This document shows, one piece after another, positions 67 through 52,199 of a stretch of DNA of 52,199 bases. Under the pieces are notes generated by a model, which was not told the DNA's origin, made no database searches, and saw only the letters and a list, made by a program, of their open reading frames with translations. Source of the stretch: Clostridia bacterium (GTDB lineage: Bacteria; Bacillota; Clostridia; Oscillospirales; Acutalibacteraceae). Made by a program: the position numbers and the translations under genes. The DNA lies in NCBI GenBank assembly GCA_024404755.1, contig JAKSPN010000001.1:1-52199 (forward strand). The letters are read 5' to 3'. Every line of letters begins with the position of its first letter. Within the stretch, counting starts at the first letter, position 1.

Positions 67-1260
67 TTACTTTTCGCGTTTCAGGCGGAAATCCACCGAG
101 CGTTTCAAATATTCAAGATACTCCTCGTCGCGGCACATCGCCTTGGTCGGCGCATCCGACAGTTTCGCCACCGGACGGCCGTTGACGAATTGCAGTTTAA
201 TCACGATATTAAGCGATTCCTCTTTGGTATCGTTCGAGCAGAACGTGCCGATGCCGAACGACACCTTGGCGCGATCTTTGAAGTTATCGTAAAGCGCCTG
301 CGCGTGGTCGAAGTCCAGTCCGTCGCTGAACAAAAGCAGTTTGTTTTTCGGGTCCACGTCGTATTTTTTGTAGTGCGCGATAATCTTCTCGCCCCATTTG
401 AACGGGTCGCCGCTGTCATGGCGCACACCGGTGTAGTTGTTGACCATCGAACGGTTGAAATCGAGCAAGAACAGGTCGGTCGTAATCGTATCGGTCAGCG
501 CCGTACCGTTATCGCCCTGATACTCGTCGTACCAGTCTTTCATCGCGTAGTGGTTGGTATACGCCAGCGGGATAGAGTCGATACCCTGATACATCTGGAC
601 GAATTCGTGGGCATACGTGCCAATCGGCGTAAGATTGTATTTCATCGCAAAGTACACGTTGGACGTACCGACACAGTTTTTCGTCTCGGTCGCAAGCCGT
701 TTAATCACCACGTCTTCCCACTCGCGGGACAGACGGCGGCGGCAACCGAATTCGGCGAACTGGAACATATACGTGCCGTCGTTGAACGCGGCGATTTTCT
801 TATCCAAACGCTCTTTCGCGGATTTTAAGAGTTCGTCGTAGTCGTAGGTGAAGCGGAAATACACCTCGTTGACAATTTCGAGCAGATAAATCTCGAACTG
901 CATCGCCGAGAACAGCGGGCCTTTCACCACAATCGACAGTTCGCCGTCGGCGGAAAGCCCCGTTTCCACGTACTCGCGAATCGGCCGCCACAACCGCAGG
1001 AATTCCACGTAGTCGTTCTTAATAAACCGAATCGAACGGAGATAATCGAGTTCCTTTTTGGTGAATTTCAGCGAGCAGAGATGGTCGATTTGACCGTTGA
1101 TTTCGTCGAGCATCTCGCGGGTGAATTTCACGCCCTCGTTACGGCACTTAAAATAGTATTCCCCGCAAAGGTCGGTATGTTTATGGAAAATCACCTGGTC
1201 CATATTGAATTTGTAGAGATCGGTGTCGAGAAGCGACACGACAATCGGTTCTAATTTCAT
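67..1260 (-). CDS. pncB: nicotinate phosphoribosyltransferase
   Basis: 397-aa ORF. The N-terminus MKLEPIVVSLLDTDLYKFNM and the length fit PncB-type NAPRTase. RBS GAAAGGA lies upstream. It is the last gene of the pncA-nadE-pncB string. Confidence 0.88.
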   Translation of the reverse strand: MKLEPIVVSLLDTDLYKFNMDQVIFHKHTDLCGEYYFKCRNEGVKFTREMLDEINGQIDHLCSLKFTKKELDYLRSIRFIKNDYVEFLRLWRPIREYVETGLSADGELSIVVKGPLFSAMQFEIYLLEIVNEVYFRFTYDYDELLKSAKERLDKKIAAFNDGTYMFQFAEFGCRRRLSREWEDVVIKRLATETKNCVGTSNVYFAMKYNLTPIGTYAHEFVQMYQGIDSIPLAYTNHYAMKDWYDEYQGDNGTALTDTITTDLFLLDFNRSMVNNYTGVRHDSGDPFKWGEKIIAHYKKYDVDPKNKLLLFSDGLDFDHAQALYDNFKDRAKVSFGIGTFCSNDTKEESLNIVIKLQFVNGRPVAKLSDAPTKAMCRDEEYLEYLKRSVDFRLKREK

Positions 1261-1274
1261 ACTATCCGGTCCTT

Positions 1275-2000
1275 TCAGATGTTCGGCTCGAAAACGGGCA
1301 TCAGTTCTAACTTGAATTGGTTTTGTTTGTGCAGGCGGTCAATGCGCTCTTTTTTGGCGGGGTCGTCGATGACACCCTCGCGGATATAGCGGTCGAGTTC
1401 GGCGTAGGTGAAGCCGAGATTTTCCTCGTCCGTCTTGCCGCAAAGCCCGTCAATCGGCACTTTATCGACCAACACGTCCGGCAGTCCGAGCACGCGGCCG
1501 ATTTCTTTCACTTCCGCCACCGTCAGGCGCGAGCAGGGGCTGAAATCCCCCACCGAATCACCGTAGCGGGTGGAGTAACCGACCCAGTCTTCCGACAAAT
1601 TGCAGGTGTTGGCGACACGGCCGTTTTTGCTTTGGGACACGGCGTACAGCGTAGCCATCCGCACACGCGGCGGCAGATTGGTCAAACTCTGAGTCGAAAG
1701 TTCGAACGGCACGGCGTTTTTAATGCCCTCCACCGCGTCTTTCACGTTGACAATGACCGACTCGATGCCGAGATGGGACACAAGCAGTTTCGCCATATCG
1801 ATATCCGCTTGCTCGCCGCAAGGCATCAGCACGCCGACCACGCGGTCTTTACCGAGCGCTTCGGCACACAGCGCGGCGACGACGGAACTGTCTTTGCCGC
1901 CGGAAATACCGACAACCGCGTTGCAGTCCGGCCCGTTTTTTGCGAAGAAATCGCGAATCCACGCGACACATTCATTTTTGACTTTGACCGCATCAAACAT
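1275..2000 (-). CDS. nadE: NH3-dependent NAD+ synthetase
   Basis: Carries the PP-loop motif SGGKDSS, and the ~240-aa size fits NadE. I moved the start to ATG 2000 (MFDAV...). GGAGA lies 6 nt upstream of it, and this start clears the pncA stop at 2003-2005. Confidence 0.88.
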   Translation of the reverse strand: MFDAVKVKNECVAWIRDFFAKNGPDCNAVVGISGGKDSSVVAALCAEALGKDRVVGVLMPCGEQADIDMAKLLVSHLGIESVIVNVKDAVEGIKNAVPFELSTQSLTNLPPRVRMATLYAVSQSKNGRVANTCNLSEDWVGYSTRYGDSVGDFSPCSRLTVAEVKEIGRVLGLPDVLVDKVPIDGLCGKTDEENLGFTYAELDRYIREGVIDDPAKKERIDRLHKQNQFKLELMPVFEPNI

Positions 2001-2002
2001 AC

Positions 2003-2536
2003 TCATTCTCCTATCACGTCGATTTGGCAACTTTTCATCGTGGCGAGCGCGGCTTTATGCGCTTCGGGGGTCACGCCCGCGCAGCAAGACGCATCCACCG
2101 TGATTTTCGCGTTCGGGTAGCCGGCGCGCATAATCAGCACGTTGGACACCACGCAGATGTCGGTGCAAAGCCCGACAAACTCCGCTTCAATCTCCTCGCC
2201 GGGATAACGGTCTTTGAGCCCTTTCGAGATGCTGAAACTGCCGAAACCGGCTTTAATCACGTCTTTATACTCTTTGCCGGAAAGCGCCTCTTTGACCGCC
2301 GGACAGAGGTCGTGACCCTCGGTACCGTCGATACAATGCGCCACGGGGAGTTTTTGCCCCTCTAACGTGGAAAAATAGTTGTCGTAATGGGTGTCGTAGG
2401 TCACGAAAATCTCGTCGCCGTCAAACTCCTTGATTTTTTTGACCACGTTCGGCACAATCGCAACGGCTTCTTTCGTTCCCAAAGCGCCGTCCACAAAATC
2501 GTTTTGCATATCCACAACGACCAGCACTTTTTTCAC
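2003..2536 (-). CDS. pncA: nicotinamidase / isochorismatase-family hydrolase
   Basis: VVVDMQNDF motif and the conserved Cys context LCTDICV of the isochorismatase/nicotinamidase family. GTG start preceded by a G-rich RBS. Its position next to nadE and pncB supports a nicotinamidase role. Confidence 0.8.
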   Translation of the reverse strand: MKKVLVVVDMQNDFVDGALGTKEAVAIVPNVVKKIKEFDGDEIFVTYDTHYDNYFSTLEGQKLPVAHCIDGTEGHDLCPAVKEALSGKEYKDVIKAGFGSFSISKGLKDRYPGEEIEAEFVGLCTDICVVSNVLIMRAGYPNAKITVDASCCAGVTPEAHKAALATMKSCQIDVIGE

Positions 2537-2577
2537 AAAGCAACCCCCCTTTTTTATAGAATTCCCAAATTGTCCCC

Positions 2578-2606
2578 ATTATAGCACAGGAAAAACCGTT
2601 CGTCAA
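2578..2606 (-). promoter_or_regulatory. sigma-A type promoter for pncA-nadE-pncB
   Basis: Minus strand reads TTGACG, a 17-nt spacer, then TATAAT, about 40 nt upstream of the pncA GTG. Confidence 0.6.
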
Positions 2607-2636
2607 CAAAGAAAACCCCGTCTTTCGACGGGGTTT
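2604..2636 (-). terminator. rho-independent terminator of the 1542-aa surface protein gene
   Basis: 9-bp GC-rich stem AACCCCGTC/GACGGGGTT with a 4-nt loop, followed on the minus strand by TTTCTTTGTT. Confidence 0.7.
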
Positions 2637-2650
2637 TCAAGGATTTTTGC

Positions 2651-5600
2651 TTATTGCGCCGTTACGCCGGCTTCGCTGTGGTCACTCCACACGTTGACAC
2701 CGTCCGCGTTGCGGAACGCCTGCACGGTGTATTTCGCGCCGGCAACCGCATTCGCGTTGCGGTCGGTGTAACTCGTGGTGTTGATGCCGATCACGGTCTT
2801 AACGGTCTTCCACGCCGTTCCGTTCCAGCGATAGAGACGGTAACCGGTCGCACCGGTCACGGCCTCCCACGAGACTACAACGCCTTCACCGGTCACTTCC
2901 GCTTCGGAGAGTGTCGGCGTACCGAGTACCACGCGGGCAGTCGTGCCGGTGGCATCGTAGGTGCTGTAAATCTTCACACCGTCTTCGGTGGTGAATGCCT
3001 GCACCGTATAGGTGTAGTAGACGTTCGCCACCGGATTGTCGTCGGTGTAGGTCGTGTTGGGCGCGTCCACCGTGGCGATGGTGCGCCACGAGGTGTCCGC
3101 CGTCTTGCGATAGATGCGATAGCCCTCCGCACCGGAGACGGCTTCCCAGTTGATGGTAATCTTCATACCGTTCGCCTGACCCTCGGTTTCGGGCGTACCG
3201 AACTCGGCGGTCGCGGACACGCCGGTCTTGTCGTAATCCGACCATTGCGTAAGTCCGGTCACGGTGCTGTCGTAATACGCCTGCACCGTGTAGGTGTAGG
3301 TCTGACCGGCGATAAGCCCTTTGGCGAGGTAACTCACGGTGTTCGCATCGGCAATCGTCTTCACGGTCACCCAGTTGGTGCCGTCTTTACGGTACAGACG
3401 GTAGCCGGTCGCGCCGTTCACTTTCTGCCACGTCACGGTGATACCGGAAGCGGAAGCCACCGCCGAGGTCAAAACCGGCGCGCCGAAGGTCACGGTCGCG
3501 GATTTACCGGTCGCGTTGTAGTCGCCCCAAATCTTGCCGGACGTGCCGTTGACGTACGCCTGCACCGTATAGGTGTAGGTGCCTTTGGCAAGGGCTTCAT
3601 CCGTAAAGGTCGCGGTCGTGCCGCCGGTGATGTCTTTCACGGTGGCATACGCGCCACTGCCGGTCTTGCGATAGACACGGTAGCCGGCAGCACCACTCAC
3701 CGCGTTCCACTTGAAGATGACGTTGTAGCCATCCGCCGTCGCGGAAACAAGCGTGGGCGTTGCAGGCGGGTCGGGATCGACAATCACTTCGGTGAAGTTG
3801 GCGGTCACCGACACGTTCTTACTCGGCATCGTGAACTTGTTGTTCACAACCGTCACGTCGGAGGACGACCAGTTCGAGAACGCCCATCCGCTGCGGCTTT
3901 CGGGGGTCAGCGTAATTTCCGTTCCGGCCACCGCGCTGGACGGGCTCGCCGTACCGCCGGTGACGGACACGGTATACAGTTGTTTGTAGGTCGCGGTCAC
4001 GCTGACGTTCTTCGCGGGCATCGTGAAGGTGGTCGAGCTGCTGTTCGCGTTCGCAAAGGTCACGTCGGAGGACGTCCACTTATCGAACACGTAGCCGCTG
4101 CGGGTTTGGGCGGTAAGCGACACCGTCGCCCCCATCTTCGCAGAAGTCGGGTTCGCCGTGCCGTAGGTCACGGACACGGAATAGGTCGCGTCTTTATACG
4201 TCGCGGTCACCGTGACGTTCTTCGCCGGAAGCGTGAAGGTGGTCGTCGCGCTGCTCGCGTTCGCAAAGGTCACGCCATCGCTCGTCGTCCACTTATCGAA
4301 CACCTTGCCGGTTGCCGGCGCATTCGCGGTAATCGTGATGGTGTCGCCCATCGCGCCGCCCGCCGGAGAAGCCGAGCCGTTGTTCACGGTCACGGTGTAC
4401 GCCGCGTTTTTGTAGGTCGCGGTGATGCTCACGTTGGAAGCGGGCATCGTGAAGGTGTTGCCGGTGAAGGTCACCGACGGAGTCGAAGTCCACTTATCGA
4501 ACACTTTGCCGGAAGGCGCCGTACCCGGAGTCAGCGTAATCGTGTCGCCGACGTTCGCGGTGGTCTTGCTCGCCGTACCGCCGGTGACGGACACGGTGTA
4601 GTTGATTTTTTCAAAGTTCGCGGTCACGGTGACGTTCTTCGCCGGCATCGTGAAGGTGGTCGTCGCGTTGTTGGCGTTCGCAAAGGTCACGCCGTCGCTC
4701 GTCGTCCAGTTTTTGAATTTATAACCGGTTTGCGGGCTGTTCGCGGTGATGGTCACCGTGTTGTTATACATCTGGGTCGTCGGGCTCGCCGTACCGCCGG
4801 AGACGGTCACAGTGTAGGTTTTCGCTTTGTAGGTCGCTTCGACCGACACGTTGCCCGCCGGCATCGAGAAGGTGGTCTGCGTGCTGGTGGCGCTCGCAAA
4901 CGTCACGGCGGTCGAGCCGGATTTCACAACCCACTTATCGAATTCCATACCCGTCGCCGCGGCATTCGCGGTCAGGGTGATGGTATCGCCGTAGTTGGCG
5001 CTCGTTTTGGAAGCCGTACCGAGCGTCACGGAAACCGTGTAGTTGATTTTCTCATAGTTTGCGGTCACGGTCACGTTAGAAGCCGGCATCGTGAAGGTGG
5101 TCACCGTGCTGGTGGCGCTCGCAAAGGTCACGCCGGAGCCGGTCCAGTTTTTGAACTTGTAGCCGGTCGCCGGGCTGCCCGCGGTAATCGTCACGGTGTC
5201 GCCCGCCGCGGCCGTCGCTTTGTCGGTCGTACCGCCGGTCACCGTCACGGTGTAGGTGGTCGGAGTCACGCTGGACTCTTCTTCACCGCTCGGAATGCTG
5301 GTGCCTTCCACAAGGACAAAGTTGTCAAAAATCGCGGAGATATCCGTATTTTTCGGACCCTCAACGTAGATGTCGAAGCGGGTACGGTAGTCGGACGCAT
5401 CCGAGGACACGCCGGAATCCACCGTAAAGGTATAGTCGCCGCTCTCGGTAATGGTGATACGCGCGCCGGAACCGTCGCCGGATTTGTTATGGATCTTCAC
5501 GACCGCATTCGAGCCGGACATTTCCACACGAAGCGTATACGTTTTACCGTTGCCGACCACTTGGCTAAACGAAGCATTGGCGGTAATGGATTTATAATAG

Positions 5601-7279
5601 TTGGTATTGATGTTCAGTTTGCCGTTCGAAACGGTAAACGCGCTGGCAGGGTTAAACGTCCAACCGGTTGTACCGTTCGAGAAGTCGCCGTTGACGATAA
5701 GGTTGCCGGAAACCGTTCCGCCGCCACCACCGCTTTGGGTCGTGGTGGTCACCTGCTTGGTCGTGCTGGACGATGCGGAGGAATTGGAGGTCGGCGAAGT
5801 GGGCGTATCCCCACCGCCGGAGGTCCAACGATAAGCGTTGACCTCGATGGATTTCACCGTAAAGGTACCTGCGCCGGTCTCGTCATACAAACGCAGTCGA
5901 CCGGTGGTCGAGAAGTCCAACTCATTGGGATACTTGTACGAAATCGTCGAAAGCGAGGTGGAAACCGCCGTCGTACTCTCATCCGACCACGTCTCCGAGC
6001 CAAGCGAGTCGAAAAGCACCGCATAAACATAGTTTCCGTTGCTATTTTCCGTACCGGTCATAATGATTTCGTAATACTCGCCGGAATCCGGGTCAATCAT
6101 ACCGTTGGCTTGATAATCGGCAACAAGTGCAGAAATCATATCCGCGTTAACATATTCGCCACCGGCGGCCACCGCTTTATTTTCGTTTGCTTTGTAGTAC
6201 AGCGCTTTTTTCGTCAGCGTCATACCGGAGGTGTTTTTGGTCGTTGCGGTCGTTTGCACGTAAGAACCCGTTGTGCGGCTTTCGGTTACGCCGCCGCTGT
6301 TATACGAGGTCGTTCTGTTAGCAGAAATATCACCGCTGATATCTTGCGAGAACGAACGCGCATGGTGAATGGCTACACCGAAATCGGAAGTAAGGCCCGT
6401 ATTCGCCATAATGGTGTACAGACCGCGAATGTAATCTACAACGGTATTTTTATCTTTGCCGGCACGCGCCAAAGAAACGTTAGAAGCAAGCAACGAACCG
6501 TCCGATTCGTGCAGCGTGCATTCCATACCGATAACCACGTCGCAGTTATTGTTTTTGCAAAGCGTGACCGCATTGTTCACTTCCTGCGCACGGTCAAAAA
6601 TCGCTTGTGCGCTGGCAGTACGGTATGCCATCAGGTGCATACAACCTTTACCGCCCTTAAAACGGTTTACAAAGTCCGTATACACAGAGTTGTCGCCCCA
6701 TGCCGGGTTAAAGTCATACTCAACATAGATGTTTTTTTCAACAAAATTGGTCACGGCAGTCGGGAACGAAGCCTTCATTTCGGCGGCTACCTCATAGTCG
6801 AAGTGGAAACCGTACGCCCAGTCGTTGGGGTACGTATTACGGTACGTAACAAAGTTGTTCCCCATGTTCTTCATATAGCCGAGGTCGTCCATAAGGAACG
6901 AGGTAGCGATACCGTGTTGCATAGCCGCTTGCACAAAGGTGTGGATCTCACTCATCGTGGAAGTGGAGATGCTCTTGCCGGAGAAATCCCAACCGGCATA
7001 GTAATACACTTCGGTAATACCGGCATCCTCCAACAACTGCAAATAGTTTTCACGCGTTGTGGCGTTGGTGCCATCTTCCTTGTGCCACCACCACGCGCCG
7101 ACGCGCGGACGGTTGTCCATAGAGTACGCGTGCGCGTTGATGCTCATCGAGTCGCCGATCGCGTTCGTCAGGTTGGACGACCACGTAGTAAACGGTACGA
7201 TCGGGAGCGACAGTACCGTCAGCGCAATCGCCAACGCCCACGCCAACACGCGATAGGTGCGGTTTCTTGTTGTTGCCAT
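2651..7279 (-). CDS. giant secreted multidomain protein: N-terminal signal/anchor, unrecognised GH18-like enzyme core, shared beta-rich module, CBM-like module, 7 Listeria-Bacteroides (Flg_new) repeats, 4 FN3-like repeats
   Basis: Start set at ATG 7279 (MATTRNRTYRVLAWALAIALTVLSLP...), which has GAGGAGG upstream. The track ORF extends 35 codons further without an RBS. Domain calls are read from the translation: WWWH...HFDYE...LMAYR...GMECT core; NLIVNGDFSNGTTGW, which is CBM4/9-like; repeated YTVTV..G..F..W....VTF...FTMP..NV.V.A.Y units; and GYR(V/L/I)YRK units. Confidence 0.85.
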   Translation of the reverse strand: MATTRNRTYRVLAWALAIALTVLSLPIVPFTTWSSNLTNAIGDSMSINAHAYSMDNRPRVGAWWWHKEDGTNATTRENYLQLLEDAGITEVYYYAGWDFSGKSISTSTMSEIHTFVQAAMQHGIATSFLMDDLGYMKNMGNNFVTYRNTYPNDWAYGFHFDYEVAAEMKASFPTAVTNFVEKNIYVEYDFNPAWGDNSVYTDFVNRFKGGKGCMHLMAYRTASAQAIFDRAQEVNNAVTLCKNNNCDVVIGMECTLHESDGSLLASNVSLARAGKDKNTVVDYIRGLYTIMANTGLTSDFGVAIHHARSFSQDISGDISANRTTSYNSGGVTESRTTGSYVQTTATTKNTSGMTLTKKALYYKANENKAVAAGGEYVNADMISALVADYQANGMIDPDSGEYYEIIMTGTENSNGNYVYAVLFDSLGSETWSDESTTAVSTSLSTISYKYPNELDFSTTGRLRLYDETGAGTFTVKSIEVNAYRWTSGGGDTPTSPTSNSSASSSTTKQVTTTTQSGGGGGTVSGNLIVNGDFSNGTTGWTFNPASAFTVSNGKLNINTNYYKSITANASFSQVVGNGKTYTLRVEMSGSNAVVKIHNKSGDGSGARITITESGDYTFTVDSGVSSDASDYRTRFDIYVEGPKNTDISAIFDNFVLVEGTSIPSGEEESSVTPTTYTVTVTGGTTDKATAAAGDTVTITAGSPATGYKFKNWTGSGVTFASATSTVTTFTMPASNVTVTANYEKINYTVSVTLGTASKTSANYGDTITLTANAAATGMEFDKWVVKSGSTAVTFASATSTQTTFSMPAGNVSVEATYKAKTYTVTVSGGTASPTTQMYNNTVTITANSPQTGYKFKNWTTSDGVTFANANNATTTFTMPAKNVTVTANFEKINYTVSVTGGTASKTTANVGDTITLTPGTAPSGKVFDKWTSTPSVTFTGNTFTMPASNVSITATYKNAAYTVTVNNGSASPAGGAMGDTITITANAPATGKVFDKWTTSDGVTFANASSATTTFTLPAKNVTVTATYKDATYSVSVTYGTANPTSAKMGATVSLTAQTRSGYVFDKWTSSDVTFANANSSSTTFTMPAKNVSVTATYKQLYTVSVTGGTASPSSAVAGTEITLTPESRSGWAFSNWSSSDVTVVNNKFTMPSKNVSVTANFTEVIVDPDPPATPTLVSATADGYNVIFKWNAVSGAAGYRVYRKTGSGAYATVKDITGGTTATFTDEALAKGTYTYTVQAYVNGTSGKIWGDYNATGKSATVTFGAPVLTSAVASASGITVTWQKVNGATGYRLYRKDGTNWVTVKTIADANTVSYLAKGLIAGQTYTYTVQAYYDSTVTGLTQWSDYDKTGVSATAEFGTPETEGQANGMKITINWEAVSGAEGYRIYRKTADTSWRTIATVDAPNTTYTDDNPVANVYYTYTVQAFTTEDGVKIYSTYDATGTTARVVLGTPTLSEAEVTGEGVVVSWEAVTGATGYRLYRWNGTAWKTVKTVIGINTTSYTDRNANAVAGAKYTVQAFRNADGVNVWSDHSEAGVTAQ
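2654..3775 (-). repeat. 4 tandem ~90-95-aa FN3-like coding repeats (W..V.GA.GYR.YRK...W..V....TY.YTVQA)
   Basis: Periodicity seen directly in the C-terminal ~372 aa of the 2651-7279 product. Confidence 0.75.
3776..5255 (-). repeat. 7 tandem ~65-75-aa Listeria-Bacteroides (Flg_new/InlB B-repeat-like) coding repeats
   Basis: Seven units of the form YTV(T/S)V.GGTAS....G..I.(I/L)TA....G..F..WT....VTF......TTFTMPA.NV.VTA.Y. By eye, the DNA units of ~210-220 bp are ~80% identical between some copies. Confidence 0.8.
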
Positions 7280-7374
7280 AAAACAGGCCTCCTCAATAAT
7301 GATATCGGACAAAAAAAGGGGTAAAAAGATGTGTTTTTCCGGGGAAGACAGACTTCCCCACATTCCTACTGTAA

Positions 7375-7403
7375 AATATACCACTTTTTACCCACAATGT
7401 CAA
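7375..7403 (-). promoter_or_regulatory. near-consensus sigma-A promoter of the giant surface protein gene
   Basis: Minus strand reads TTGACA, a 17-nt spacer ending in TGG, then TATATT. This implies a leader of ~89 nt. Confidence 0.6.
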
Positions 7404-7497
7404 CGGTTTTTTGTGCTTTTTGTACAAACAAAACGACGAAAAGTGGTAGCCCTCGCTAACCGCCCGCAAACCCTTGATACAAGCGGCTGTTACAAAA

Positions 7498-7536
7498 AGA
7501 AAATCCGAGCAGAGAGTCCCCTGCTCGGATTTTTCG
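7498..7536 (-). terminator. rho-independent terminator of the dockerin protein gene
   Basis: Stem TCCGAGCAG/CTGCTCGGA (7504-7512 / 7521-7529), flanked by A/T runs, 25 nt downstream of the stop at 7561. Confidence 0.7.
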
Positions 7537-7560
7537 TATTTTATTTGTGAATTTTGACGA

Positions 7561-9312
7561 TTAGAAAGACTCAATGAGTCCCGCCAAGAACTTGCGAATC
7601 TGCAACACGTCTTTCATATTCACCGCGCCGTCTTGAGTCACGTCGGCGGCGGTCATATCGATTGCCGTTTGAAGGTTCGCCAAGAATTTACGCATCACGA
7701 GAACGTCTTTCATATTCACCGCGCCGTCCGCGTTCGCATCGCCGAGAAGCACCGCCGGCACACTCGGGTCGGTAGACGGCGTTGTCGGGTCGGTTTCGAC
7801 CGGCTCGGTCGCGGTGGTGGTGACTTTGTACGGGTTGCGGTACACTTTCACCCAGATGCCGCGCATATCGAGACAGTTCGATCCGCGGTCGCACGCGAGG
7901 AACAGCGTATTGGTCTTCGCACTCATATTGTCCTCGCTGCCGTTTCGCGTGAAGTCGATGGGTTTGCGAATATAAGAAATCACCTGCGGCGGGAAGCCGA
8001 CAAAGAAGTTTTGGACAACGGTACCGTTCGGATAATCTTGTTTATCCGCCCAAATGTCGCGGCCGCGGCTGTCGATGAGGCAGGGATAGAAGTTATCCGA
8101 CATAATGGCAACGCCCATCACCATCACTTCATAATACTCGCCCTGTTCGGGATCGATCGGACCGTTTTTCTCATAGTCGGCAACAAGCGCCTCAGACAAG
8201 CCCTCGAATTTGATGGCGACGCCGTTGGAGGTCGTGTCGAAATACTCGTCCATACCCATACGGCGATAGAGTTCGGTTTCGGTCAGTTCGTAGGTGATTT
8301 GCGTGGTCGTCTGCTCTTCGCCGGAGGTGCGGACGTATTGCGTGGTGGTGGCGTTTTCGTCAATCGAGCCGTGGGTCGTGCGCTCCGGCACGTTGCCCGC
8401 GAGTTTGTAGAACGAACGGTTTTGGTGAATCGCCATACCGTACGGAATCGACAGATTTTTCTCGTCGAGAATCTCAAACACGCCGTCGATCACCTCGAAC
8501 AACTTCTCTTTGTTGGAGTCGTGGAAGTCCACGCCGTCCTCGCCGGAGTTGTCGGTTTCCACGCCGTAAGTAATCGGGCAACCGTATTTGATGGCGGCGG
8601 TCAGGCACTCGTCACCGCAGGAGACCACTTTGTCCGCCCGCACGCGGTAGGACATTAAGCTCATCGTGTCGGTGTATTTCGCCAAGATGTTGAACAGACC
8701 GGTCACGCCTTCATAGGTCAGCGAAGCACCGCCGCGTTTTTCCCAGTTGACGTTCACGTCCACGTCGCACCAGATGCCCGCTTCGCGCAGTTCCTGCAGC
8801 GGCGCGATGAAGTAATCGACAAACGCTTGGGTCGGACGGCCGCCGGACGGCTCCATATCAAAGTGCATACCGTAAACGGCATCTTTCGGGTATTCCTCTT
8901 TGTAGGCGAGAAAGCCGTCTTTGATTTTTCCGGTCAAATAGGACGTATCGCCGTCTTTGAGATCCGCCCAACCGTCATACATAATGGCAACGCGGCAACC
9001 GTGAGCCATCGCTTTTTGGACAAAACCGTGCAGTTTCTCGCGGTTGCCCTCGGTCGTCAGGTAGTCGTAGCCGTAGAAATAAATCTCGTTGACACCCGAT
9101 TGTTGGTACAGCGACAGATATTTCTCGCACTCCGTCTCGTTAAAAGCATCTTGCGGCCACCACCACCAAGAGCCAAGGCGATGCTCCGCGGCGATTTCCG
9201 CGCCGCTCGCGGCGTTGGAGGTCATGGCAATCAGCGGCAGAGAGAAGATAATCATCACAGCCGCCAAAATCAGCGCCACAATCCGGGCAACTTTACCCCG
9301 TTTTCCGGTCAT
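7561..9312 (-). CDS. secreted dockerin-containing protein with the same unrecognised GH18-like core as 2651-7279
   Basis: Signal peptide MTGKRGKVARIVALILAAVMIIFSLPLIAMTSNAASG. Core motifs SWWWW, EIYFYG, YGMHFDMEP, LMSYR, YGVETD and MAIHQNRSF. A Thr/Pro linker precedes the C-terminal dockerin. Confidence 0.85.
   Translation of the reverse strand: MTGKRGKVARIVALILAAVMIIFSLPLIAMTSNAASGAEIAAEHRLGSWWWWPQDAFNETECEKYLSLYQQSGVNEIYFYGYDYLTTEGNREKLHGFVQKAMAHGCRVAIMYDGWADLKDGDTSYLTGKIKDGFLAYKEEYPKDAVYGMHFDMEPSGGRPTQAFVDYFIAPLQELREAGIWCDVDVNVNWEKRGGASLTYEGVTGLFNILAKYTDTMSLMSYRVRADKVVSCGDECLTAAIKYGCPITYGVETDNSGEDGVDFHDSNKEKLFEVIDGVFEILDEKNLSIPYGMAIHQNRSFYKLAGNVPERTTHGSIDENATTTQYVRTSGEEQTTTQITYELTETELYRRMGMDEYFDTTSNGVAIKFEGLSEALVADYEKNGPIDPEQGEYYEVMVMGVAIMSDNFYPCLIDSRGRDIWADKQDYPNGTVVQNFFVGFPPQVISYIRKPIDFTRNGSEDNMSAKTNTLFLACDRGSNCLDMRGIWVKVYRNPYKVTTTATEPVETDPTTPSTDPSVPAVLLGDANADGAVNMKDVLVMRKFLANLQTAIDMTAADVTQDGAVNMKDVLQIRKFLAGLIESF
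7564..7752 (-). other. type-I-like dockerin module (two Ca-binding repeats)
   Basis: DANADGAVNMKDVLVMRKFL and DVTQDGAVNMKDVLQIRKFL. These are two copies of the D.(N/T).DG.(V/I)N..D F-hand pattern that defines dockerins. Confidence 0.85.
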
Positions 9313-9386
9313 CGGTCATACACTCCTTAAAAGTTTTCATTCGCATAGATTTGCGGTATATATACTACCATTTTTCCGGTACTCTG

Positions 9387-10238
9387 TCAACCGCAATTCG
9401 ACAAATCTCCGCAATTTCGGCTGTAAAGCGGTTGTTCTTTACACGTAACTCCCCCGCCGGCCCACAACGCCGCCGCAAAGCCGCACAACCCGCACAACAC
9501 GGCGACAGCGCCGGTTTTGTCCGCCGAAAGCGGCGGGAGTACGGGCACGACCGATGCCGCCACAAAGCCGGTTACGGCGGCGTTCATCGCATCAAAAAAG
9601 CGGGTGTAAAGGAAGTTCACTATACAGACAAGTATCGCCGCCACTGCCGCGAATCCCACGGCAAACGGCAACAAACCGCGCCAATTCTCACCCGCTATGA
9701 CCGCGAGCACGCCTTCGTACGCGCCCATCGACAACAAAATGCACGAAGCGCTCACGCCGGGCACTACGGTGCCGAGCGCGTAGATGCCGCCGCACAAAAC
9801 GAACGCGCCAAACGTCGCGGGCGCGCCCATTCGCGGGAACAGATGACCGTAAAAGAGCAAAAGCCCCGCCGCAAACGCCGCGGCGGTCAGCCCCCACGCC
9901 CGCACGCGATGCCGTTGCGGCGCGGAAGCACCCGCAATGAGCGTGGCAAGGATAATTCCCGCGACGGCACACCGCATTTCGGCGGGAAACGCCTCAAACA
10001 GCCGCAAAAGTGCCCGCCCGAACGCGAGAATACCGCCCGCGATACCGAGCGCGAGCAAACAGAGCGTTTTGCCGTTTTGTCTAAGCGCTTTCAGCGGGTG
10101 CGCGGCGGCAAACAACAACGGCTCGTAGTAGCCGAACGAGGCGGCGAGCGCTCCCCCGCTGACTCCCGGCGCAATTCCGAGTGCGCCGATGGCTACCCCG
10201 CAAAACAGCGGGCGCAAAAACGATGCGTTTCGTGTCAT
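9387..10238 (-). CDS. DUF368-family membrane protein (family recently linked to polyprenyl-phosphate translocation)
   Basis: Polytopic hydrophobic protein carrying the duplicated PGVSGG / PGVSAS motif typical of DUF368. Start set at ATG 10238, which has GGAGGA 6 nt upstream. Confidence 0.7.
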   Translation of the reverse strand: MTRNASFLRPLFCGVAIGALGIAPGVSGGALAASFGYYEPLLFAAAHPLKALRQNGKTLCLLALGIAGGILAFGRALLRLFEAFPAEMRCAVAGIILATLIAGASAPQRHRVRAWGLTAAAFAAGLLLFYGHLFPRMGAPATFGAFVLCGGIYALGTVVPGVSASCILLSMGAYEGVLAVIAGENWRGLLPFAVGFAAVAAILVCIVNFLYTRFFDAMNAAVTGFVAASVVPVLPPLSADKTGAVAVLCGLCGFAAALWAGGGVTCKEQPLYSRNCGDLSNCG

Positions 10239-10274
10239 ACACATTCCTCCCGCTTTTGTATATGCAGAAAAACG

Positions 10275-10305
10275 CAAAAAAGCACCTCAAACGAGGTGCT
10301 TTTTA
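10275..10305. terminator. bidirectional rho-independent terminator downstream of rnpB
   Basis: AAAAAAGCACCTC-AAAC-GAGGTGCTTTTT: a perfect 7-bp stem flanked by A and T runs. Confidence 0.7.
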
Positions 10306-10308
10306 AGC

Positions 10309-10636
10309 GTGAGTGAGTCTGTAAGCCGGGTTCTGTCTTGAATAGTCATCTATCTCGACCGTTCGTTGCCGAACGGCTCAAGCCGCCTTTCAAAGCACGT
10401 CGGGTCAACGTATCGCTTTTGTCGGCGTTGCATCGGATAGGGTTTGCAGGGCCACACAGTCTCCTGTGCGCCGGTGAGCTCTTACCTCGCCTTTCCACCC
10501 TTACCCGCAAAGCGGGCGGTATCTCTCTGTTGCACTTTCCCTAAGGTCACCCTCGGCGGCCGTTAGCCGTTATCCTGCCCTGTGATGCCCGGACTTTCCT
10601 CATACCCGAAGGTACGCGACTATCCGGCTCACTCAC
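10309..10636 (-). ncRNA. rnpB: RNase P RNA, bacterial class A
   Basis: The minus strand contains GAGGAAAGTCCGGGC (P4 5' strand), AGTGCAACAGAGAG, GGTAAGGGTGGAAAGGCGAGGTAAGAGCTCACCGG and ACAGAACCCGGCTTA (P4 3' strand). The 5' GTGAGTGAG pairs with the 3' CTCACTCAC to form P1. Confidence 0.92.
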
Positions 10637-10644
10637 AGAGAGTG

Positions 10645-10673
10645 AGTATAGCCGATTTTTCGCGTTTTGTCAA
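10645..10673 (-). promoter_or_regulatory. consensus promoter of rnpB
   Basis: Minus strand reads TTGACA, a 17-nt spacer, then TATACT, ending 8 nt before the P1 helix. The -35 element overlaps the PBP stop codon (10670-10672). Confidence 0.65.
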
Positions 10674-12274
10674 CCGTTTGTTTGCAAAGACCGCAAATAC
10701 AACGCGTCGCAAATCTCTTGGAACACCGGCGCGGCGCTTTCTTCCCGCGCTTCGCTGTTTTCGCAAAGCACCGTCACCACGTATTGCGGACGCTCCGCCG
10801 GAAAGAAGCCGGTAAACCAATGCTGAACGACCTCTTTACCGTCTTCCACCCAGCCGGTTTCCGCCGTTCCCGTTTTGGCGGCGGCGGGCAGGTAATACGG
10901 CTGACCTTTGGCACCCGTTCCCTCCTCCATCGTGTACACCATCATCGGATAGAGCGTTTTGGCAGTCTCTTTCGAGAATACCTCCTGCGCGGGCGACGGA
11001 TCGGCTTTTGTAAAGTTGCCGTTTTCGTCCACCGTTCCCGCCACGAGTGTCGGGCGGTAAATCGCCCCGCCGTTCACTATTGCGGCAGCCAGTTGCGCCA
11101 CGTGCAGCGGCGTTGCAAGCAGTTCCCCCTGCCCGAACGCGAGGTTACACAGCGCCGCATCCGACGATTTAAGCGTTTTAAGCGACGGCAAGGTTGCCCG
11201 CGCGGTAGAAAGCCCCGGCGCGGGAGTCCACGCGCGGTCTAACCCGAACGCCACCGCCATATCGTAAACCGGCTCTGCCCCGACGGAAAGCGCCAACTGG
11301 ATATAGTAGGGGTTGCAGGACTTGGCGAACGCCTCTTTCATATCGAGCGTGCCGTGTCCGAGGATATAGTGACAGCGAAAAAAGTTCCCGCCGAGCCCGT
11401 AACCGCCGTTGCAGGTGAATTCCGTTTCGGGCGAAGCGCCCGCTTCAAGCGCCGCCGATGCGGTCACGATTTTGAACACCGATCCGCAGTTATAGTCCGC
11501 AAACGCGCGGTTGAGAAGCGGCGCGTTGTCCGCCGAAAGCACCGCCTCCACGCCGTTTGGCTGATAGGTCGGCACGCTGGCGAGCGCGCGAATCTCCCCC
11601 GTCGGCTCCATCACCACCACCGCGCCGCAAGTCATTTTTTCGGCGGCGTGCTCGGCGATTTGCTGAATGGCGCTGTCAATAGTCAGCACCACCCCGCCCT
11701 TGCATTTTGCGGTGGTATCGGTCACCGTCGGCGCCGTTCCCGCCACCGGCTTTCCGGCGGCATCCACCGCATACGTCACCTCCACCGCGCCCGCATACGA
11801 CGTAAGCAGGTCGTCAAACGCGTACTCGATGCCGCACACCCCGCCGTTTTCGTTGCAATACCCGAGCACGTGCGGCGCAATCGTTTGTCCCGCATACCGT
11901 ATCGGCAGGGTTTTAAGCGTGACCCCGTCGCACAGCGCAAGCGGCGTATCGCTTTTGACGGCAATCGGCTTGTCGCTTGCAAGCCGTTCCAACAGTTCCG
12001 CCGCCTCCGGCTTTGAAAACGAAGACCTCACCATCGCTTTTGCCTTTTCGGTGGGCGCGATGGCGGCCACGTAACCGAAATCCCGATTGACGAGCGCCCG
12101 CCGGTTGCAGTCGTAAATCGTGCCCCGCGCCGTGCCGAGCGTGACCGTAGCGGTCGCTTGGGCAACGGCGGCTTCTTTCAGTTCCGGCTCGTTTTGAAGG
12201 GTCACCACCCGCCACGTACAAACGCCGAGCAAAAGACACAACGTAACAGCAAACGATACCACACGCAATTTCAT
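10670..12274 (-). CDS. class B penicillin-binding protein (peptidoglycan D,D-transpeptidase, FtsI/SpoVD-like)
   Basis: N-terminal membrane anchor. SVFK (SxxK) and KTGTAE (KTG) transpeptidase motifs. No PASTA domains. Confidence 0.88.
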   Translation of the reverse strand: MKLRVVSFAVTLCLLLGVCTWRVVTLQNEPELKEAAVAQATATVTLGTARGTIYDCNRRALVNRDFGYVAAIAPTEKAKAMVRSSFSKPEAAELLERLASDKPIAVKSDTPLALCDGVTLKTLPIRYAGQTIAPHVLGYCNENGGVCGIEYAFDDLLTSYAGAVEVTYAVDAAGKPVAGTAPTVTDTTAKCKGGVVLTIDSAIQQIAEHAAEKMTCGAVVVMEPTGEIRALASVPTYQPNGVEAVLSADNAPLLNRAFADYNCGSVFKIVTASAALEAGASPETEFTCNGGYGLGGNFFRCHYILGHGTLDMKEAFAKSCNPYYIQLALSVGAEPVYDMAVAFGLDRAWTPAPGLSTARATLPSLKTLKSSDAALCNLAFGQGELLATPLHVAQLAAAIVNGGAIYRPTLVAGTVDENGNFTKADPSPAQEVFSKETAKTLYPMMVYTMEEGTGAKGQPYYLPAAAKTGTAETGWVEDGKEVVQHWFTGFFPAERPQYVVTVLCENSEAREESAAPVFQEICDALYLRSLQTNG

Positions 12275-12334
12275 AAAAAAATCCTCCCGTTCACGGGTTA
12301 GGTTGCCCGCAAACGAGAGGATTTAATCGGTAAT

Positions 12335-14014
12335 TTAGTCCGCGTATACGCCGATGTCGTAGCGATAGCAAATCGCCATATGCTCGTCGAACGTTTCGGA
12401 ATAGTAGGTGACCGTCGGGTCAACGCTCGTATCCGTGGCGAAGTAGAAGCAGTTGATGATATCGTTGTCATCGTTGGGATACGCCACCGCACGCAGCGCC
12501 GCCAGACCCGGGTTGCTGATAGGTCCGGTGGGAAGTCCCTCGCAGATATAAGTGCTGTATGCTTGGAAGCTCGGGTTTTCTTTGCCTGCGCCCGGCTGGA
12601 AGTTCTCGACGTACTCGGTGGTAACGTCGGATTGCAGGTGCGGGAACTCGGCAGGACTGCCGAGACGGTTGTGGAACACACGGGCGATTTTCGCCATATC
12701 CACCGTGTTGTCCGCTTCCATTTGCACCACCGAAGCCAGCGTAACCGCTTCGTCCAGCGTAAGGCCCATGGCTTTGATACCGGTTTTCAGTTTGGTATCC
12801 ACACGGGTATCGAAGTTGTCGAAGAATTTTTCAAGCACCGCTTCCGGACTGCATTGTTTATAGAACGTGTAGGTATCCGGGAACAGATAACCCTCCAACC
12901 GATAGATACGGTACGGATGGTCGGTGCCGGCACCTACGTCGGGAATGGCGGCGATGAAGTCGTAATCCGAATAGTCGCCCTCTTCGAGTTCGGTGAGGAA
13001 TTCCTGCGAGCCGCAGACCTCGTTTTCTTCGAGCAGTTTGGCGATTTCGAGGACGTTGTAGCCCTCGGGGATGGTCACGTCCACCGTTTCACGCTCACCG
13101 ACGGATTGCAAATCGGAGATGATGCCCTGATAGCCCTCGTTGGAGGCGAGCGTAAACACGCCCGACTGATACTGTCCGTCGGCGTGGGTGAATTTCGAGA
13201 ACAAACGGAACAACAGCGGATGGGACACGAGTCCGTTATCGTGGAGCACTTCCGCCACCTGCTTGGTGTTCGCGCCGCGCGGAATGGCAACGTCCACCTC
13301 GCGCTCGGATTTGTTAAGACCCAGCATATCCAGCGCACCGGTCACGCCGATAAACGCCAACACACAGGACACCGCCAACACACACACGAGATAGAAAATC
13401 ATACCCATGCAAGAGAGGCGTTTGCGCTCTTCTTCCTCGTATTCTTCCCACTCGTCGATGTGGACGGGCGCATTCGGGTCAAGCGGCTCTTCCTCGTCTT
13501 CCTCGTCGAGAATGCGCACCGGCGCGTTCGGGTCAACCTCGACCTCCGGCGCGACTTCCGGCGCGGCGGCGATTTCCGCGGCCGCTTCCGGCGCAGTTTC
13601 TTCGTCAAGCGTTTCCGCTTCGTCCGCAACCGTCACTTCGTCCGTTTCTTCTAAAACGGGCGTTTCGACCGGACGTTCCCATTCGCCGATATCGCCTTCT
13701 TTGTCCATCTTGGCGGCGACGGCGGCGGCAATGGCGTTCACCGCATCGGGGGATTTTTGAACGGGTTGTTCCTCTTCCTCCTCCGCTTTCGCCGCATACC
13801 GATTAACCGCCGACGGCACAGTATGGATTGCGGGCTCGCTCTCCGCCGTGTTGCGAAGCGGCGGGGCTTTACGCTTCGGCGTAAACTCCACCGGCGCATC
13901 CATCGCATCAGGGCTGATGTTCAGGCGGAAACCCGCCACTTTTTCTTTCCGTTCCCGGGCGGCACGTTCCGCCTCCGTTTCAAACGGGCTTTGTCCGTTG
14001 TCAAATTCGCTCAC
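12335..14014 (-). CDS. mltG: endolytic murein transglycosylase MltG (YceG family) with a long acidic N-terminal extension
   Basis: The C-terminal ~330 aa carry YceG hallmarks (YRLEGYLFPDTY, single TM CMGMIFYLVCVLAVSCVLAFIGV). GTG start with GAGAGGAG RBS. Confidence 0.85.
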   Translation of the reverse strand: MSEFDNGQSPFETEAERAARERKEKVAGFRLNISPDAMDAPVEFTPKRKAPPLRNTAESEPAIHTVPSAVNRYAAKAEEEEEQPVQKSPDAVNAIAAAVAAKMDKEGDIGEWERPVETPVLEETDEVTVADEAETLDEETAPEAAAEIAAAPEVAPEVEVDPNAPVRILDEEDEEEPLDPNAPVHIDEWEEYEEEERKRLSCMGMIFYLVCVLAVSCVLAFIGVTGALDMLGLNKSEREVDVAIPRGANTKQVAEVLHDNGLVSHPLLFRLFSKFTHADGQYQSGVFTLASNEGYQGIISDLQSVGERETVDVTIPEGYNVLEIAKLLEENEVCGSQEFLTELEEGDYSDYDFIAAIPDVGAGTDHPYRIYRLEGYLFPDTYTFYKQCSPEAVLEKFFDNFDTRVDTKLKTGIKAMGLTLDEAVTLASVVQMEADNTVDMAKIARVFHNRLGSPAEFPHLQSDVTTEYVENFQPGAGKENPSFQAYSTYICEGLPTGPISNPGLAALRAVAYPNDDNDIINCFYFATDTSVDPTVTYYSETFDEHMAICYRYDIGVYAD

Positions 14015-40305: not shown

Positions 40306-41378
40306 GAAACCGACGCTCCTTTCTCCGACCAAATGACGTGGCGATAATGCCCTTTGGCGGTATCGTCGTAATACCAGGTGTTGTCGGTGGTCACCGCGAC
40401 GTTCGCCACCGTTTTGCCGCCTTTGATAATCGCGTACTGCGTGGCGCTTTGGTTGTTGATGACAATCGACTCGTTGGATTTGGCGCTGTCCGCCGTTTTG
40501 CCGGACACTTCGTTATACACAATCAGCGCGGATTTCGTAAACTCGCTGACCGGCTCGGCAAGCCAATAGTTGCCGAGTTTTCGCCCGATTAAGCGATACA
40601 AAAATCCGGTTTTCTCGCGGTAATAATACTCGCCGTCCGGACCGTGTGCCACCGCGCCGAGCACGTTGCCTTTCGCATCGGTTGCCACGTAAAAGTCGCA
40701 GTCCACGCCGTTGACCAATCCGTTGCCGGATTGTTCCACCGTGCAGGTGCTGCTCTTCGTAAACTCTTTGAGCATCCATTCCGCGATATCCAAAACCGAC
40801 TCGCCGTCCAGCGGCAGGTCGCCGACGGTCAGCGTGCCGTCGTCCATCAGCGTAACGGGAATATAGTCGCCGTATTGGTCTTTGTAGTACCATTGACCGT
40901 CGCTCGACTGGGCAATCTGCTCGGTGTGACCCGCGCCGTCCGACACGGTATACACTTTGCACTTTTCGCCGTTAATCAGCGTTTCGCCGCCTTGTTGTGC
41001 CGCGGCGGGTTGGGTGGGCGCACCCACGCTGTACAGAGCGCTTTCATACGCCTCGGAATCCTCGGTCAAGCCGCCGCGGTCGTCCGCCGCGTGAAGCGCT
41101 TTTGCCACGGCAATCGCCTCATCCTCCACGCTCGCAAACTCCACTTTGGACGTGTCGCCGCTGTCGCTTCCGTTTTCGTTGGATTTTTGACCGGCAGAGG
41201 AATTTTCGCCCCCGTTACCGCCGGACACGTCCGCGCCGGGAGCCGTGCTTACCGCGCCGCTTTGCGACTCCGCGCCGGAGACGGCGGAGGTGTCTTTTCC
41301 TCCGTGTTTTTTACAGCCGGTGCAAAGCAGCAGCGCCGCCACCGCCAGCACGAACAGAATTTTCACAGTACGTTTCAT
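40302..41378 (-). CDS. probable lipoprotein with three internal repeats, function unknown
   Basis: Signal peptide MKRTVKILFVLAVAALLLCTGC and a low-complexity Ser/Gly linker. Three ~90-aa modules follow, each ending in (V/I)NG..C..Y.V.D..G.....A...DG.(W/Y)YY.(D/E)..G.Y. Confidence 0.7.
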   Translation of the reverse strand: MKRTVKILFVLAVAALLLCTGCKKHGGKDTSAVSGAESQSGAVSTAPGADVSGGNGGENSSAGQKSNENGSDSGDTSKVEFASVEDEAIAVAKALHAADDRGGLTEDSEAYESALYSVGAPTQPAAAQQGGETLINGEKCKVYTVSDGAGHTEQIAQSSDGQWYYKDQYGDYIPVTLMDDGTLTVGDLPLDGESVLDIAEWMLKEFTKSSTCTVEQSGNGLVNGVDCDFYVATDAKGNVLGAVAHGPDGEYYYREKTGFLYRLIGRKLGNYWLAEPVSEFTKSALIVYNEVSGKTADSAKSNESIVINNQSATQYAIIKGGKTVANVAVTTDNTWYYDDTAKGHYRHVIWSEKGASVS

Positions 41379-41499: not shown

Positions 41500-41529
41500 A
41501 ATGAAAAACACGAAAAGGTGTGACGTTTT

Positions 41530-42753: not shown

Positions 42754-42765
42754 GGAGGATTCGCT

Positions 42766-51837: not shown

Positions 51838-52199
51838 TTAGTTCAGATAGTCGCCCCAGTGGAGACGAAGCGCTTTCATCGTGGATTCCGAGTGGATTGC
51901 GTAACCCACCGGGAAATCGTTTTCCAACTCACGGTTATCCACCTTTTGGTTGAGTTTGTACAATTCCGACCAAGCAGTGTAAATACCCTCTTCGTGGAAG
52001 TCCACGTGGTCGCCCTCGCCGGAGTTGCCGAGTTCGATACCGAACACCACTTTGGTGCCGTACTGTTTGGCGGCGGGAATGATGTTCGTGCCGCAGCCGT
52101 AGATATCCGCGTATTTATCGCGATAGGACATCATGCACATACAATCGCAGTTGGCGGCGATGATGTTGTAAATGCCGGTCACGCCGTTATACTCCAAAT
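51838..52199 (-). CDS. C-terminal part of a third paralog of the GH18-like core (5' end lies outside the window)
   Basis: CMCMMSYRDK...FGIELGNSGEGDHVDFHEEG...GYAIHSES aligns with LMSYR...YGVETDNSGEDGVDFHDS...GMAIHQNRS of 7561-9312. Confidence 0.8.
   Translation of the reverse strand, partial: LEYNGVTGIYNIIAANCDCMCMMSYRDKYADIYGCGTNIIPAAKQYGTKVVFGIELGNSGEGDHVDFHEEGIYTAWSELYKLNQKVDNRELENDFPVGYAIHSESTMKALRLHWGDYLN

Follow-up and report, generated by a model that had tools for sequence, protein, structure and literature searches.

A secreted TIM-barrel family in tandem dockerin and adhesin-repeat proteins of an Acutalibacteraceae genome, a candidate glycoside hydrolase family of clan GH-K type

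The 52,199-nucleotide stretch of gut Clostridia DNA analysed here (contig JAKSPN010000001.1, Acutalibacteraceae; in the following the window) carries two tandem genes for secreted proteins of 583 and 1542 amino acids (aa) that share a core of about 275 aa. This core belongs to a large secreted TIM-barrel family without a curated classification. Judged from sequence comparisons and a predicted structure, the family is most probably a glycoside hydrolase (GH) with a modified GH18-type catalytic ladder. It qualifies as a candidate for a new GH family of the clan GH-K type, not as a categorically new system, and one unpublished structure of a member already exists. The two genes and their cores are located as follows.

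7561..9312, minus strand: gene of the 583-aa dockerin protein, an open reading frame (ORF) encoding a signal peptide, barrel core, beta module, Thr/Pro linker and dockerin.
2651..7279, minus strand: gene of the 1542-aa protein, an ORF encoding a signal peptide, barrel core, beta module, CBM_4_9, seven InlB B-repeats and four fn3-like repeats.
8368..9195, minus strand: (beta/alpha)8 barrel core of the 583-aa protein, aa 40-315 (AlphaFold2 model and family conservation).
6290..7111, minus strand: (beta/alpha)8 barrel core of the 1542-aa protein, aa 57-330 (match to the family hidden Markov model (HMM), E 7e-91).

A preliminary description of this DNA had claimed that the two ORFs have a common core and a beta-rich module of ~150 aa, and BLASTP confirmed both (27% and 31% identity, respectively). 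The cores alone (~275 aa) align at 27% identity with an E value of 5e-31, and the N-terminal ~500 aa of the two proteins at 27% identity with an E value of 6e-52. The core motifs GAWWW/GSWWW, EVYYY/EIYFY, YGFHFDYE/YGMHFDME and LMAYR/LMSYR that had been listed are each found once per protein, as are the later motifs GME/GVE, VAIH/MAIH and ALVADY(Q/E)xNGxIDPxxGEYYE. The Glu-to-Tyr distance, previously counted by hand, is exactly 56 residues in the large protein and 68 in the dockerin protein.

The AlphaFold2 model of the 583-aa core, built with an 11-sequence alignment, has eight alternating strand/helix units and thus predicts a (beta/alpha)8 barrel, the fold for which a check had been proposed (predicted local distance difference test (pLDDT) 93.7, predicted template modelling score (pTM) 0.91). 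Conservation was read from 158 cores, and adding 39 to the core numbering gives the numbering of the 583-aa protein. On the first two strands W10 and W12 (beta1) and Y39 (beta2) are near-invariant, and so is F58. At the end of beta4 or just after it follow H111 (96%), D113 (99%) and E115 (100%). D146 on beta5 is conserved in 91% and E213 at the end of beta7 in 92%, while just after beta6 stand M181 (99%), Y183 (98%) and then an Arg (85%). Beta8, which reads G-x-A-I-H, has a near-invariant G253 and H257 (98%). W10, W12, M181 and Y183 all fall within 96-99%.

The full signature set is retained by both window proteins and by a truncated third copy at the end of the window. The key residues are W49, W51, Y78, H150, D152, E154, D185, M220, Y222, R223, E252 and H296 in the 583-aa protein and W63, W65, Y92, H159, D161, E163, D189, M217, Y219, R220, E253 and H305 in the 1542-aa protein. 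According to the model topology, all near-invariant positions, the Asp-x-Glu and Tyr among them, map to the C-terminal ends of strands beta1, 2 and 4-8, which would be the canonical catalytic face. Their composition (acidic residues, Tyr and several Trp) would be that of a sugar-processing site, to go by the strand topology. Three findings named beforehand as speaking against the enzyme-like reading, a confident profile hit to a characterised family, a fold other than a TIM barrel and scattered acidic residues, were not encountered.

The relationship to GH18, which comprises chitinases and endo-beta-N-acetylglucosaminidases of clan GH-K, is the best-supported one. Four independent tests on sequence and model agree on it, always in the catalytic register, and it appears remote and is unproven by sequence statistics alone. 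Foldseek comparison of the model with the PDB placed GH18 structures at ranks 1-5 and in about 20 of the top 50, the rest of which comprised GH1, GH5, GH39 and a few non-glycosidase barrels; all matches were remote (E ~1e-6, TM 0.5-0.6, 10-15% identity). PDB searches with a single sequence and with the 11-sequence profile gave nothing, and only a diverse profile of 27 sequences (A5) reached 10yv and GH18. Searched against 177,635 PDB sequences, A5 gave five matches only: 10yv, a designed protein, a ribosomal protein and two GH18 chitinases, 5xwf (E 6e-4) and 5jh8 (E 0.49). The entry 10yv_A (275 aa) is a true family member, matched over the whole domain with E 1.4e-21, and the two chitinases are the only enzymes found besides it. 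In the 5xwf alignment G-x-H-x-D-x-E-P falls on G-L-N-L-D-W-E-Y and D-x-x-x-x-M-S-Y-R on D-A-F-Y-I-M-A-Y-D. A comparison with hhalign against a GH18 profile of E. coli ChiA and 103 homologues (104 domains) gave the same beta3-beta6 register (score 28.2, P 0.003, probability 9.5%). The family HMM scored the GH18 domains at a median of 2.3 bits versus -1.5 for reversed decoys, with 25 of the 104 above the best decoy.

Both GH18 and the family are (beta/alpha)8 barrels in which a catalytic or catalytic-type Glu ends an i, i+2, i+4 ladder after beta4, written G-x-D-x-D-W-E-Y-P in GH18 and G-x-H-x-D-x-E-P in the family. They also have in common D-x-x-x-(L/I)-M-x-Y after beta6 with a similar Glu-to-Tyr spacing (56-68 in the family), a Trp that ends beta1, and G-x-x-x-(aromatic or His) on beta8. 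The family differs from GH18 in the extra conserved Asp on beta5 and Glu on beta7, in the compact barrel of ~275 aa without the alpha+beta insertion, and in the low identity of 10-15%. The resemblance to GH18 suspected in the preliminary description appears as the best-supported relationship, with Foldseek ranks 1-5 and the 5xwf match in register, though remote and marginal by hhalign.

Several observations weigh against a GH18 relationship and a GH18-type activity. Reversed controls in hhalign score 19-25.5, and one of 40 block-shuffled profiles reaches 28.2. The E values of the A5 search are optimistic, because the designed alpha/beta protein scores E 0.002. The Foldseek values for GH18 (1e-6, TM 0.51-0.59) are near those of GH1, GH5 and GH39. 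Beta3 is without SxGG and has L-x-G-D instead, the two window proteins reading M-Y-D-G and L-M-D-D. Of the DxxDxDxE motif the first two Asp are missing, the middle Asp being a His (96%); the Asp after the beta6 Tyr is replaced by Arg (85%) and the beta8 Trp by His257 (98%). The solved member 10yv has V-T-F where M-S-Y would be expected. The Pfam model Glyco_hydro_18 (PF00704), which matches E. coli ChiA as a positive control, gave no match at E<=10 in the two window proteins, 11 homologues and 74 members. The pocket geometry is taken only from the strand topology of the model. Finally, the genomic contexts of the stand-alone members (P0079, P0171, P0092, P0107 and P0087; plasmids of Bacillus, Priestia and Paenibacillus) are heterogeneous, with no conserved partner and no clue to the substrate.

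The favoured mechanism, GH18-type substrate-assisted retaining catalysis on a 2-acetamido-sugar glycan, is considered to have about an even chance of being correct, its enzymatic steps being proposed from the conserved residues and the model. The core would be an autonomous secreted (beta/alpha)8 enzyme domain and a very remote GH18 relative of clan GH-K type. The predicted reaction is the retaining hydrolysis of a glycosidic bond beside a 2-acetamido sugar with assistance from the substrate. Glu154 of the 583-aa protein (Glu163 of the 1542-aa protein) at the end of beta4 would act as general acid/base, and Asp152/Asp161, two residues upstream, would orient the N-acetyl group, with His150/His159 standing in for the second Asp of GH18. 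Tyr222/Tyr219 of the M-x-Y after beta6 would stabilise the oxazolinium intermediate, and Trp49, Trp51 and Tyr78 (Trp63, Trp65 and Tyr92 in the large protein) may form the sugar platform. The dockerin is expected to plug the 583-aa protein into a cohesin scaffold, and the 1542-aa paralogue would be held at the substrate or the cell surface by its CBM_4_9, InlB-type repeats and fn3 repeats.

A retaining glycosidase of the '4/7' type of clan GH-A, acting on a neutral plant or microbial polysaccharide with E154/E163 as acid/base, E252/E253 as nucleophile and the beta6 Tyr hydrogen-bonded to the nucleophile, is unlikely. It would account for E213, which ends beta7 and is 92% conserved, and E115-P116 resembles the 'E-P' of the GH-A motif N-E-P. 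GH1, GH5 and GH39 were found at similar Foldseek scores, GH39 having the highest TMq (0.61), and the CBM_4_9 and dockerin fit such a substrate; CBM_4_9 modules usually accompany beta-glucanases and xylanases. The four paralogues of one locus surround a GH94 phosphorylase, and the sister contig has a GH30 gene close by. However, E213 is replaced by N, Q, A, L, T, D or K in 13 domains, every other signature residue being intact, and the GH-A mechanism is disfavoured because all these domains without the beta7 Glu keep H-x-D-x-E and M-x-Y. The residue preceding E115 is V, I, M or L in 151 of the 158 domains and Asn in none. The conservation of D113 and M181 (99% each) is not explained by a GH-A mechanism, and the family profile finds no GH-A sequence in the PDB versus two of GH18. 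A metal-dependent TIM barrel, either an amidase/deacetylase or a xylose-isomerase-like isomerase/epimerase, in which the His, Asp and Glu residues of beta4, 5, 7 and 8 bind a divalent cation, is quite improbable. H111, D113, E115, D146, E213 and H257 have the composition of a metal site, and the beta4-beta5-beta7 spacing of E115, D146 and E213 resembles that of the E-D-H-E tetrad of xylose-isomerase-like barrels. The xylose-isomerase-domain protein 4ovx appears at Foldseek rank 22, and RefSeq calls the Bacillus badius member an 'amidase'. This reading is weakened because the putative ligands D146 (91%) and E213 (92%) vary most within the set, with A, S, G, N, L or T in their place, while M181, Y183, W10 and W12, which are not of ligand type, are conserved to 96-99%. 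No amidase, CE4 or AP_endonuc_2 signal was found in Pfam or NCBIfam at E<=10, and architectures with dockerin and carbohydrate-binding module (CBM) are typical of glycan-active enzymes.

The core may alternatively be a non-catalytic, lectin-like glycan-binding barrel akin to the GH18 chitinase-like lectins, serving as an adhesin or as a cellulosome targeting unit. Its fusion to adhesin-type repeats and dockerins agrees with this, the massive expansion of paralogues recalls binding-protein families, and the second domain of some tandem proteins is degenerate, for example in P0017 (aa 518-790). Chitinase-like lectins characteristically lose the catalytic Glu and Asp, whereas the candidate acid/base Glu is conserved in 100% and the Asp in 99% of the 158 domains, and separate modules of binding type (beta sandwich, CBM_4_9) are already attached, which leaves this explanation with a very low probability. 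A divergent GH97 glycosidase, as implied by the depositors' title of 10yv, 'Putative GH97 from Cellulomonas fimi', is hardly credible. GH97 catalytic domains are indeed (beta/alpha)8 barrels, but neither 10yv nor any family member tested matches Glyco_hydro_97 in Pfam at E<=10. Neither the family profile nor 10yv matches any solved GH97 sequence, no GH97 structure is among the Foldseek top 50, and the family is a single domain of ~275 aa without the N- and C-terminal domains of GH97.

The structure of 10yv is solved, and no publication on it was found; the Foldseek library does not contain it. It resembles the family in M-W-L-W on beta1, H-x-D-x-E-P, D-x-P-W-W on beta5 and G-L-E-T on beta7, and is regarded as a divergent branch because V-T-F replaces M-S-Y on beta6. 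Unlike the window proteins it is a stand-alone actinobacterial protein without dockerin or beta module. The name 'amidase' is attached in RefSeq to the Bacillus badius protein WP_120036611.1 (L032:4884-5786, plasmid pPM400); this protein and nine other members gave no NCBIfam match at E<=10. The labels 'putative GH97' (PDB) and 'amidase' (RefSeq) were both rejected, being without Pfam or NCBIfam HMM support, and the family needs a proper assignment because they conflict. A precedent for a TIM barrel of unknown function with only remote clan GH-K similarity is offered by GH163 and GH185 (DUF4838), domains of unknown function that became GH families: these remote GH20-like barrels use substrate-assisted catalysis on glycans that contain N-acetylglucosamine (PMC10570127). 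They are unlike the present family at the sequence level. Identity with GH185/GH163 was rejected, as the core is without a match to PF16126 and the sequences are unrelated.

The preliminary description had been unable to assign the core to a named family, and all searches of curated resources agree with this. Pfam is empty on the core even at E<=10 in the two window proteins, 11 close homologues and 74 diverse members, recurrent sub-threshold matches were not found at E<=10 in the 74 members either, and NCBIfam gave no match to the core. Its suggestion that the family is undescribed holds in so far as there is no curated model, but not entirely, since one member already has the unpublished PDB entry 10yv. 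Names for 10 family members were sought in the source records and none was present, and no account of the C. fimi protein, or of a comparable barrel in a dockerin protein, turned up in literature searches.

The family is sizeable and no orphan: when 1.84 billion representatives were searched exhaustively with the profile, 1266 clusters reached E<=1e-3, 390 of them E<=1e-10 and 74 E<=1e-30. A word-indexed search underestimated it, with only 16 close relatives for the 583-aa protein and nothing for the N-terminus of the 1542-aa protein, and the HMM search corrected the count. A hydrophobic N-terminus resembling a signal peptide or lipoprotein signal is present in 131 of 164 family proteins, and in 89 of the 164 the barrel is essentially alone. 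Pfam matches among the 74 members are confined to accessory domains, namely Dockerin (19/74), Flg_new, SLH, DUF4874/DUF4832 and others; CBM_4_9 and tandem double cores also occur. Two barrels in tandem were found in six proteins (P0017, P0018, P0019, P0114, P0138 and P0146). In the second core of P0017 (aa 518-790) most signature positions are degenerate while D113, E115 and Y183 are kept. Two cores are likewise encoded at L009:1772-8929 and L010:2312-4495.

A tblastn search of phage genomes gave no family match. The only close fold match is the Terrestrivirus sp. protein A0A3G4ZKF2, a predicted structure in BFVD (TMq 0.84, E 3e-12, 15% identity), an uncharacterised giant-virus protein without annotation. 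Judged from the predicted structures it is probably of the same family or of a sister family. Because it is the closest fold match, it suggests that the family or a sister family reaches into nucleocytoplasmic large DNA viruses or their hosts.

The module of ~150 aa that follows the core is predicted by AlphaFold2 to be a jelly-roll beta sandwich with one helix that bears the ALVADY motif (pLDDT 92.4). It has no Pfam match. Foldseek relates it only remotely to solved folds, the nearest being the P-domain of Kex2, TNF-like lectins with blood-group glycans as ligands, and the jelly rolls of viral capsids. About 20 proteins have the module behind the core and at least six have it in front, and one protein has two copies. 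It is thus an independent, shuffled accessory domain, because its position relative to the core varies, and on the evidence of the model it is probably a family-specific, CBM-like binding module.

The family is amplified, as had been proposed, both within the window and in related metagenome-assembled genomes (MAGs). The third copy is located as follows.

51841..52197, minus strand: third barrel-core copy, C-terminal 118 aa (MMSYRD, GIEL, GYAIHS), cut by the window end (HMM positions 159-261, E 2e-28).

This copy has its own stop codon followed by a hairpin-like sequence. In P0042 (423 aa), which represents its full-length form, an N-terminal dockerin precedes the core and the beta module is missing. 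The close relatives are Acutalibacteraceae MAGs together with two rumen Clostridia MAGs. Six-frame scans of related loci with the family HMM gave tandem arrays, and the lower bounds on the number of cores in a MAG run from 3 to at least 11. In L001, L002 and L003 the tandem is kept, with the gene of an orthologue-like giant protein directly downstream of the dockerin gene, and a similar giant protein is found in L019. Adjacent copies number three in L006 and four in L015, and L009 has at least four cores, including a 2386-aa protein with two. The metagenome contig L022 from ENA (1209-10407) carries four barrel paralogues of 283, 392, 284 and 441 aa, some without a signal peptide. A GH94 phosphorylase and a 649-aa dockerin/CBM_4_9-like protein are encoded in between, and a GH30 gene is near in the sister contig L021.

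Dockerins or adhesin repeats were found in all eight paralogues tested and in the full-length form of the third copy. Orthologues of the 583-aa protein (64-95% identity) all have the dockerin, and the 583-aa protein itself combines a type I dockerin and a signal peptide with a catalytic-type module, the make-up of a cellulosome-type dockerin-borne enzyme. In Acutalibacteraceae the family has expanded as tandem arrays that are mostly dockerin-linked, and it is a major dockerin cargo. The tandem expansion and the dockerin linkage together point to foraging for nutrient glycans.

Acutalibacteraceae of the genus Limousia assemble 'mucinolysomes' from dockerins and cohesins, dedicated to mucin glycans rich in N-acetylhexosamine (HexNAc) (PMC12997984). 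By analogy, these complexes are compatible with a HexNAc-directed activity of the barrel family. The likeness lies in the same bacterial family, the dockerin-based display of secreted enzymes and the multi-copy families. For the window it holds at the rank of the family Acutalibacteraceae. The mucinolysome enzymes differ in belonging to known families (GH2, 20, 84, 101, 136 and others), among which the barrel is not found. Among isolated neighbours of family genes, GH94, GH30, HAD hydrolase, GNATs, GT4, sulfatase-like and lytic polysaccharide monooxygenase genes were seen without convergence. On the megaplasmid of Paenibacillus cellulositrophicus (L034:4744-7248) the barrel is part of an 834-aa 'Ig-like domain-containing protein', the gene of which adjoins a gene for a sulfatase-like hydrolase, with a lytic polysaccharide monooxygenase gene further downstream.

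Should the family be active, it would be a sizeable group of secreted, uncurated glycosidases with more than 1200 clusters at 50% identity. The glycan-degrading capacity of gut and rumen Clostridia would then be undercounted, because standard CAZyme annotation is blind to a family which in some genomes is amplified beyond all other dockerin cargo. The altered GH18-type ladder would show how substrate-assisted glycosidases diverge and might offer new specificities for glycan analysis or remodelling. A wider proposal is put forward tentatively, at somewhat less than even chances. The barrel would found a new CAZy family of clan GH-K, marked by His-x-Asp-x-Glu and Met-x-Tyr-Arg, with a specificity outside GH18, 20, 84 and 85; its target might, for instance, be a HexNAc glycan with acidic or other substituents, from host mucus or from the walls of microbial cells. 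It would be the principal, tandemly amplified cargo of an undescribed cohesin-dockerin complex in gut Acutalibacteraceae, equipped with a new jelly-roll binding module specific to the family.

The remaining features of the two genes are listed below. The accessory domains named in the preliminary description (Dockerin_1, CBM_4_9, seven Flg_new_2/InlB repeats and the fn3 repeats) were all recovered, CBM_4_9 exceeding its gathering score in a scan of that segment by itself.

9208..9312, minus strand: signal-peptide-like N-terminus of the 583-aa protein, MTGKRGKVARIVALILAAVMIIFSLPLIAMTSNAA (direct sequence reading).
7813..8301, minus strand: jelly-roll beta-sandwich module of the 583-aa protein, aa 338-500, which contains ALVADYEKNGPIDPEQGEYYE (AlphaFold2, pLDDT 92.4).
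7585..7746, minus strand: type I dockerin of the 583-aa protein, aa 523-576 (PF00404 Dockerin_1, E 1.3e-11).
7500..7533, minus strand: terminator-like hairpin between the two genes, 15-bp stem and T-run (consensus scan).
7375..7403, minus strand: promoter-like site upstream of the 1542-aa gene, 11/12 matches, extended -10 (consensus scan).
5795..6214, minus strand: beta-sandwich module of the 1542-aa protein, aa ~356-495 (31% identity to the module of the 583-aa protein, E 3e-17).
5441..5707, minus strand: CBM_4_9 of the 1542-aa protein (PF02018, E 1.2e-7, 32.6 bits versus a cutoff of 25.9).
3776..5257, minus strand: seven Flg_new_2 (divergent InlB B-repeat) domains of the 1542-aa protein (PF18998, E 3e-72, seven stretches).
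2654..3775, minus strand: four fn3-like repeats of the 1542-aa protein with the motif GYR(V/I/L)YRK (fn3, E 1e-8).

The 1542-aa ORF has an ATG start at 7279, and its reading frame is open up to a GTG at 7384. The ATG is favoured as the gene start because of the promoter-like site at 7403-7375. The 15-bp hairpin at 7533-7500 and separate promoter-like sites suggest that the genes of the 583-aa and 1542-aa proteins are separate transcription units. The fn3-like repeats of the large protein (aa 1169-1542) have a partial but significant match to GH85_C (E 2.7e-9), and the same is seen in the orthologue-like protein of L019. GH85_C is the C-terminal domain of the GH85 endo-beta-N-acetylglucosaminidases. 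The match may reflect generic fn3 similarity, or it may hint at N-glycan or HexNAc biology.

The region 9387-14014 (minus strand), which directly adjoins the dockerin gene on its upstream side, has genes for a VCA0040-like protein resembling undecaprenyl-phosphate translocases, a penicillin-binding protein of class B and a YceG/MltG-like protein. The proximity of these cell-envelope genes to the gene of a putative HexNAc-glycan hydrolase may be a coincidence. Directly downstream of the 1542-aa gene is a three-gene NAD salvage cluster (67-2536, minus strand) encoding nicotinate phosphoribosyltransferase (NAPRTase), NAD synthase and an isochorismatase-type hydrolase, and a strong bidirectional terminator-like hairpin at 2611-2638 separates the two. 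A 506-aa ORF at 41311-42831 (minus strand) has no Pfam match at E<=1e-4, and the remainder of the window is chromosomal housekeeping.

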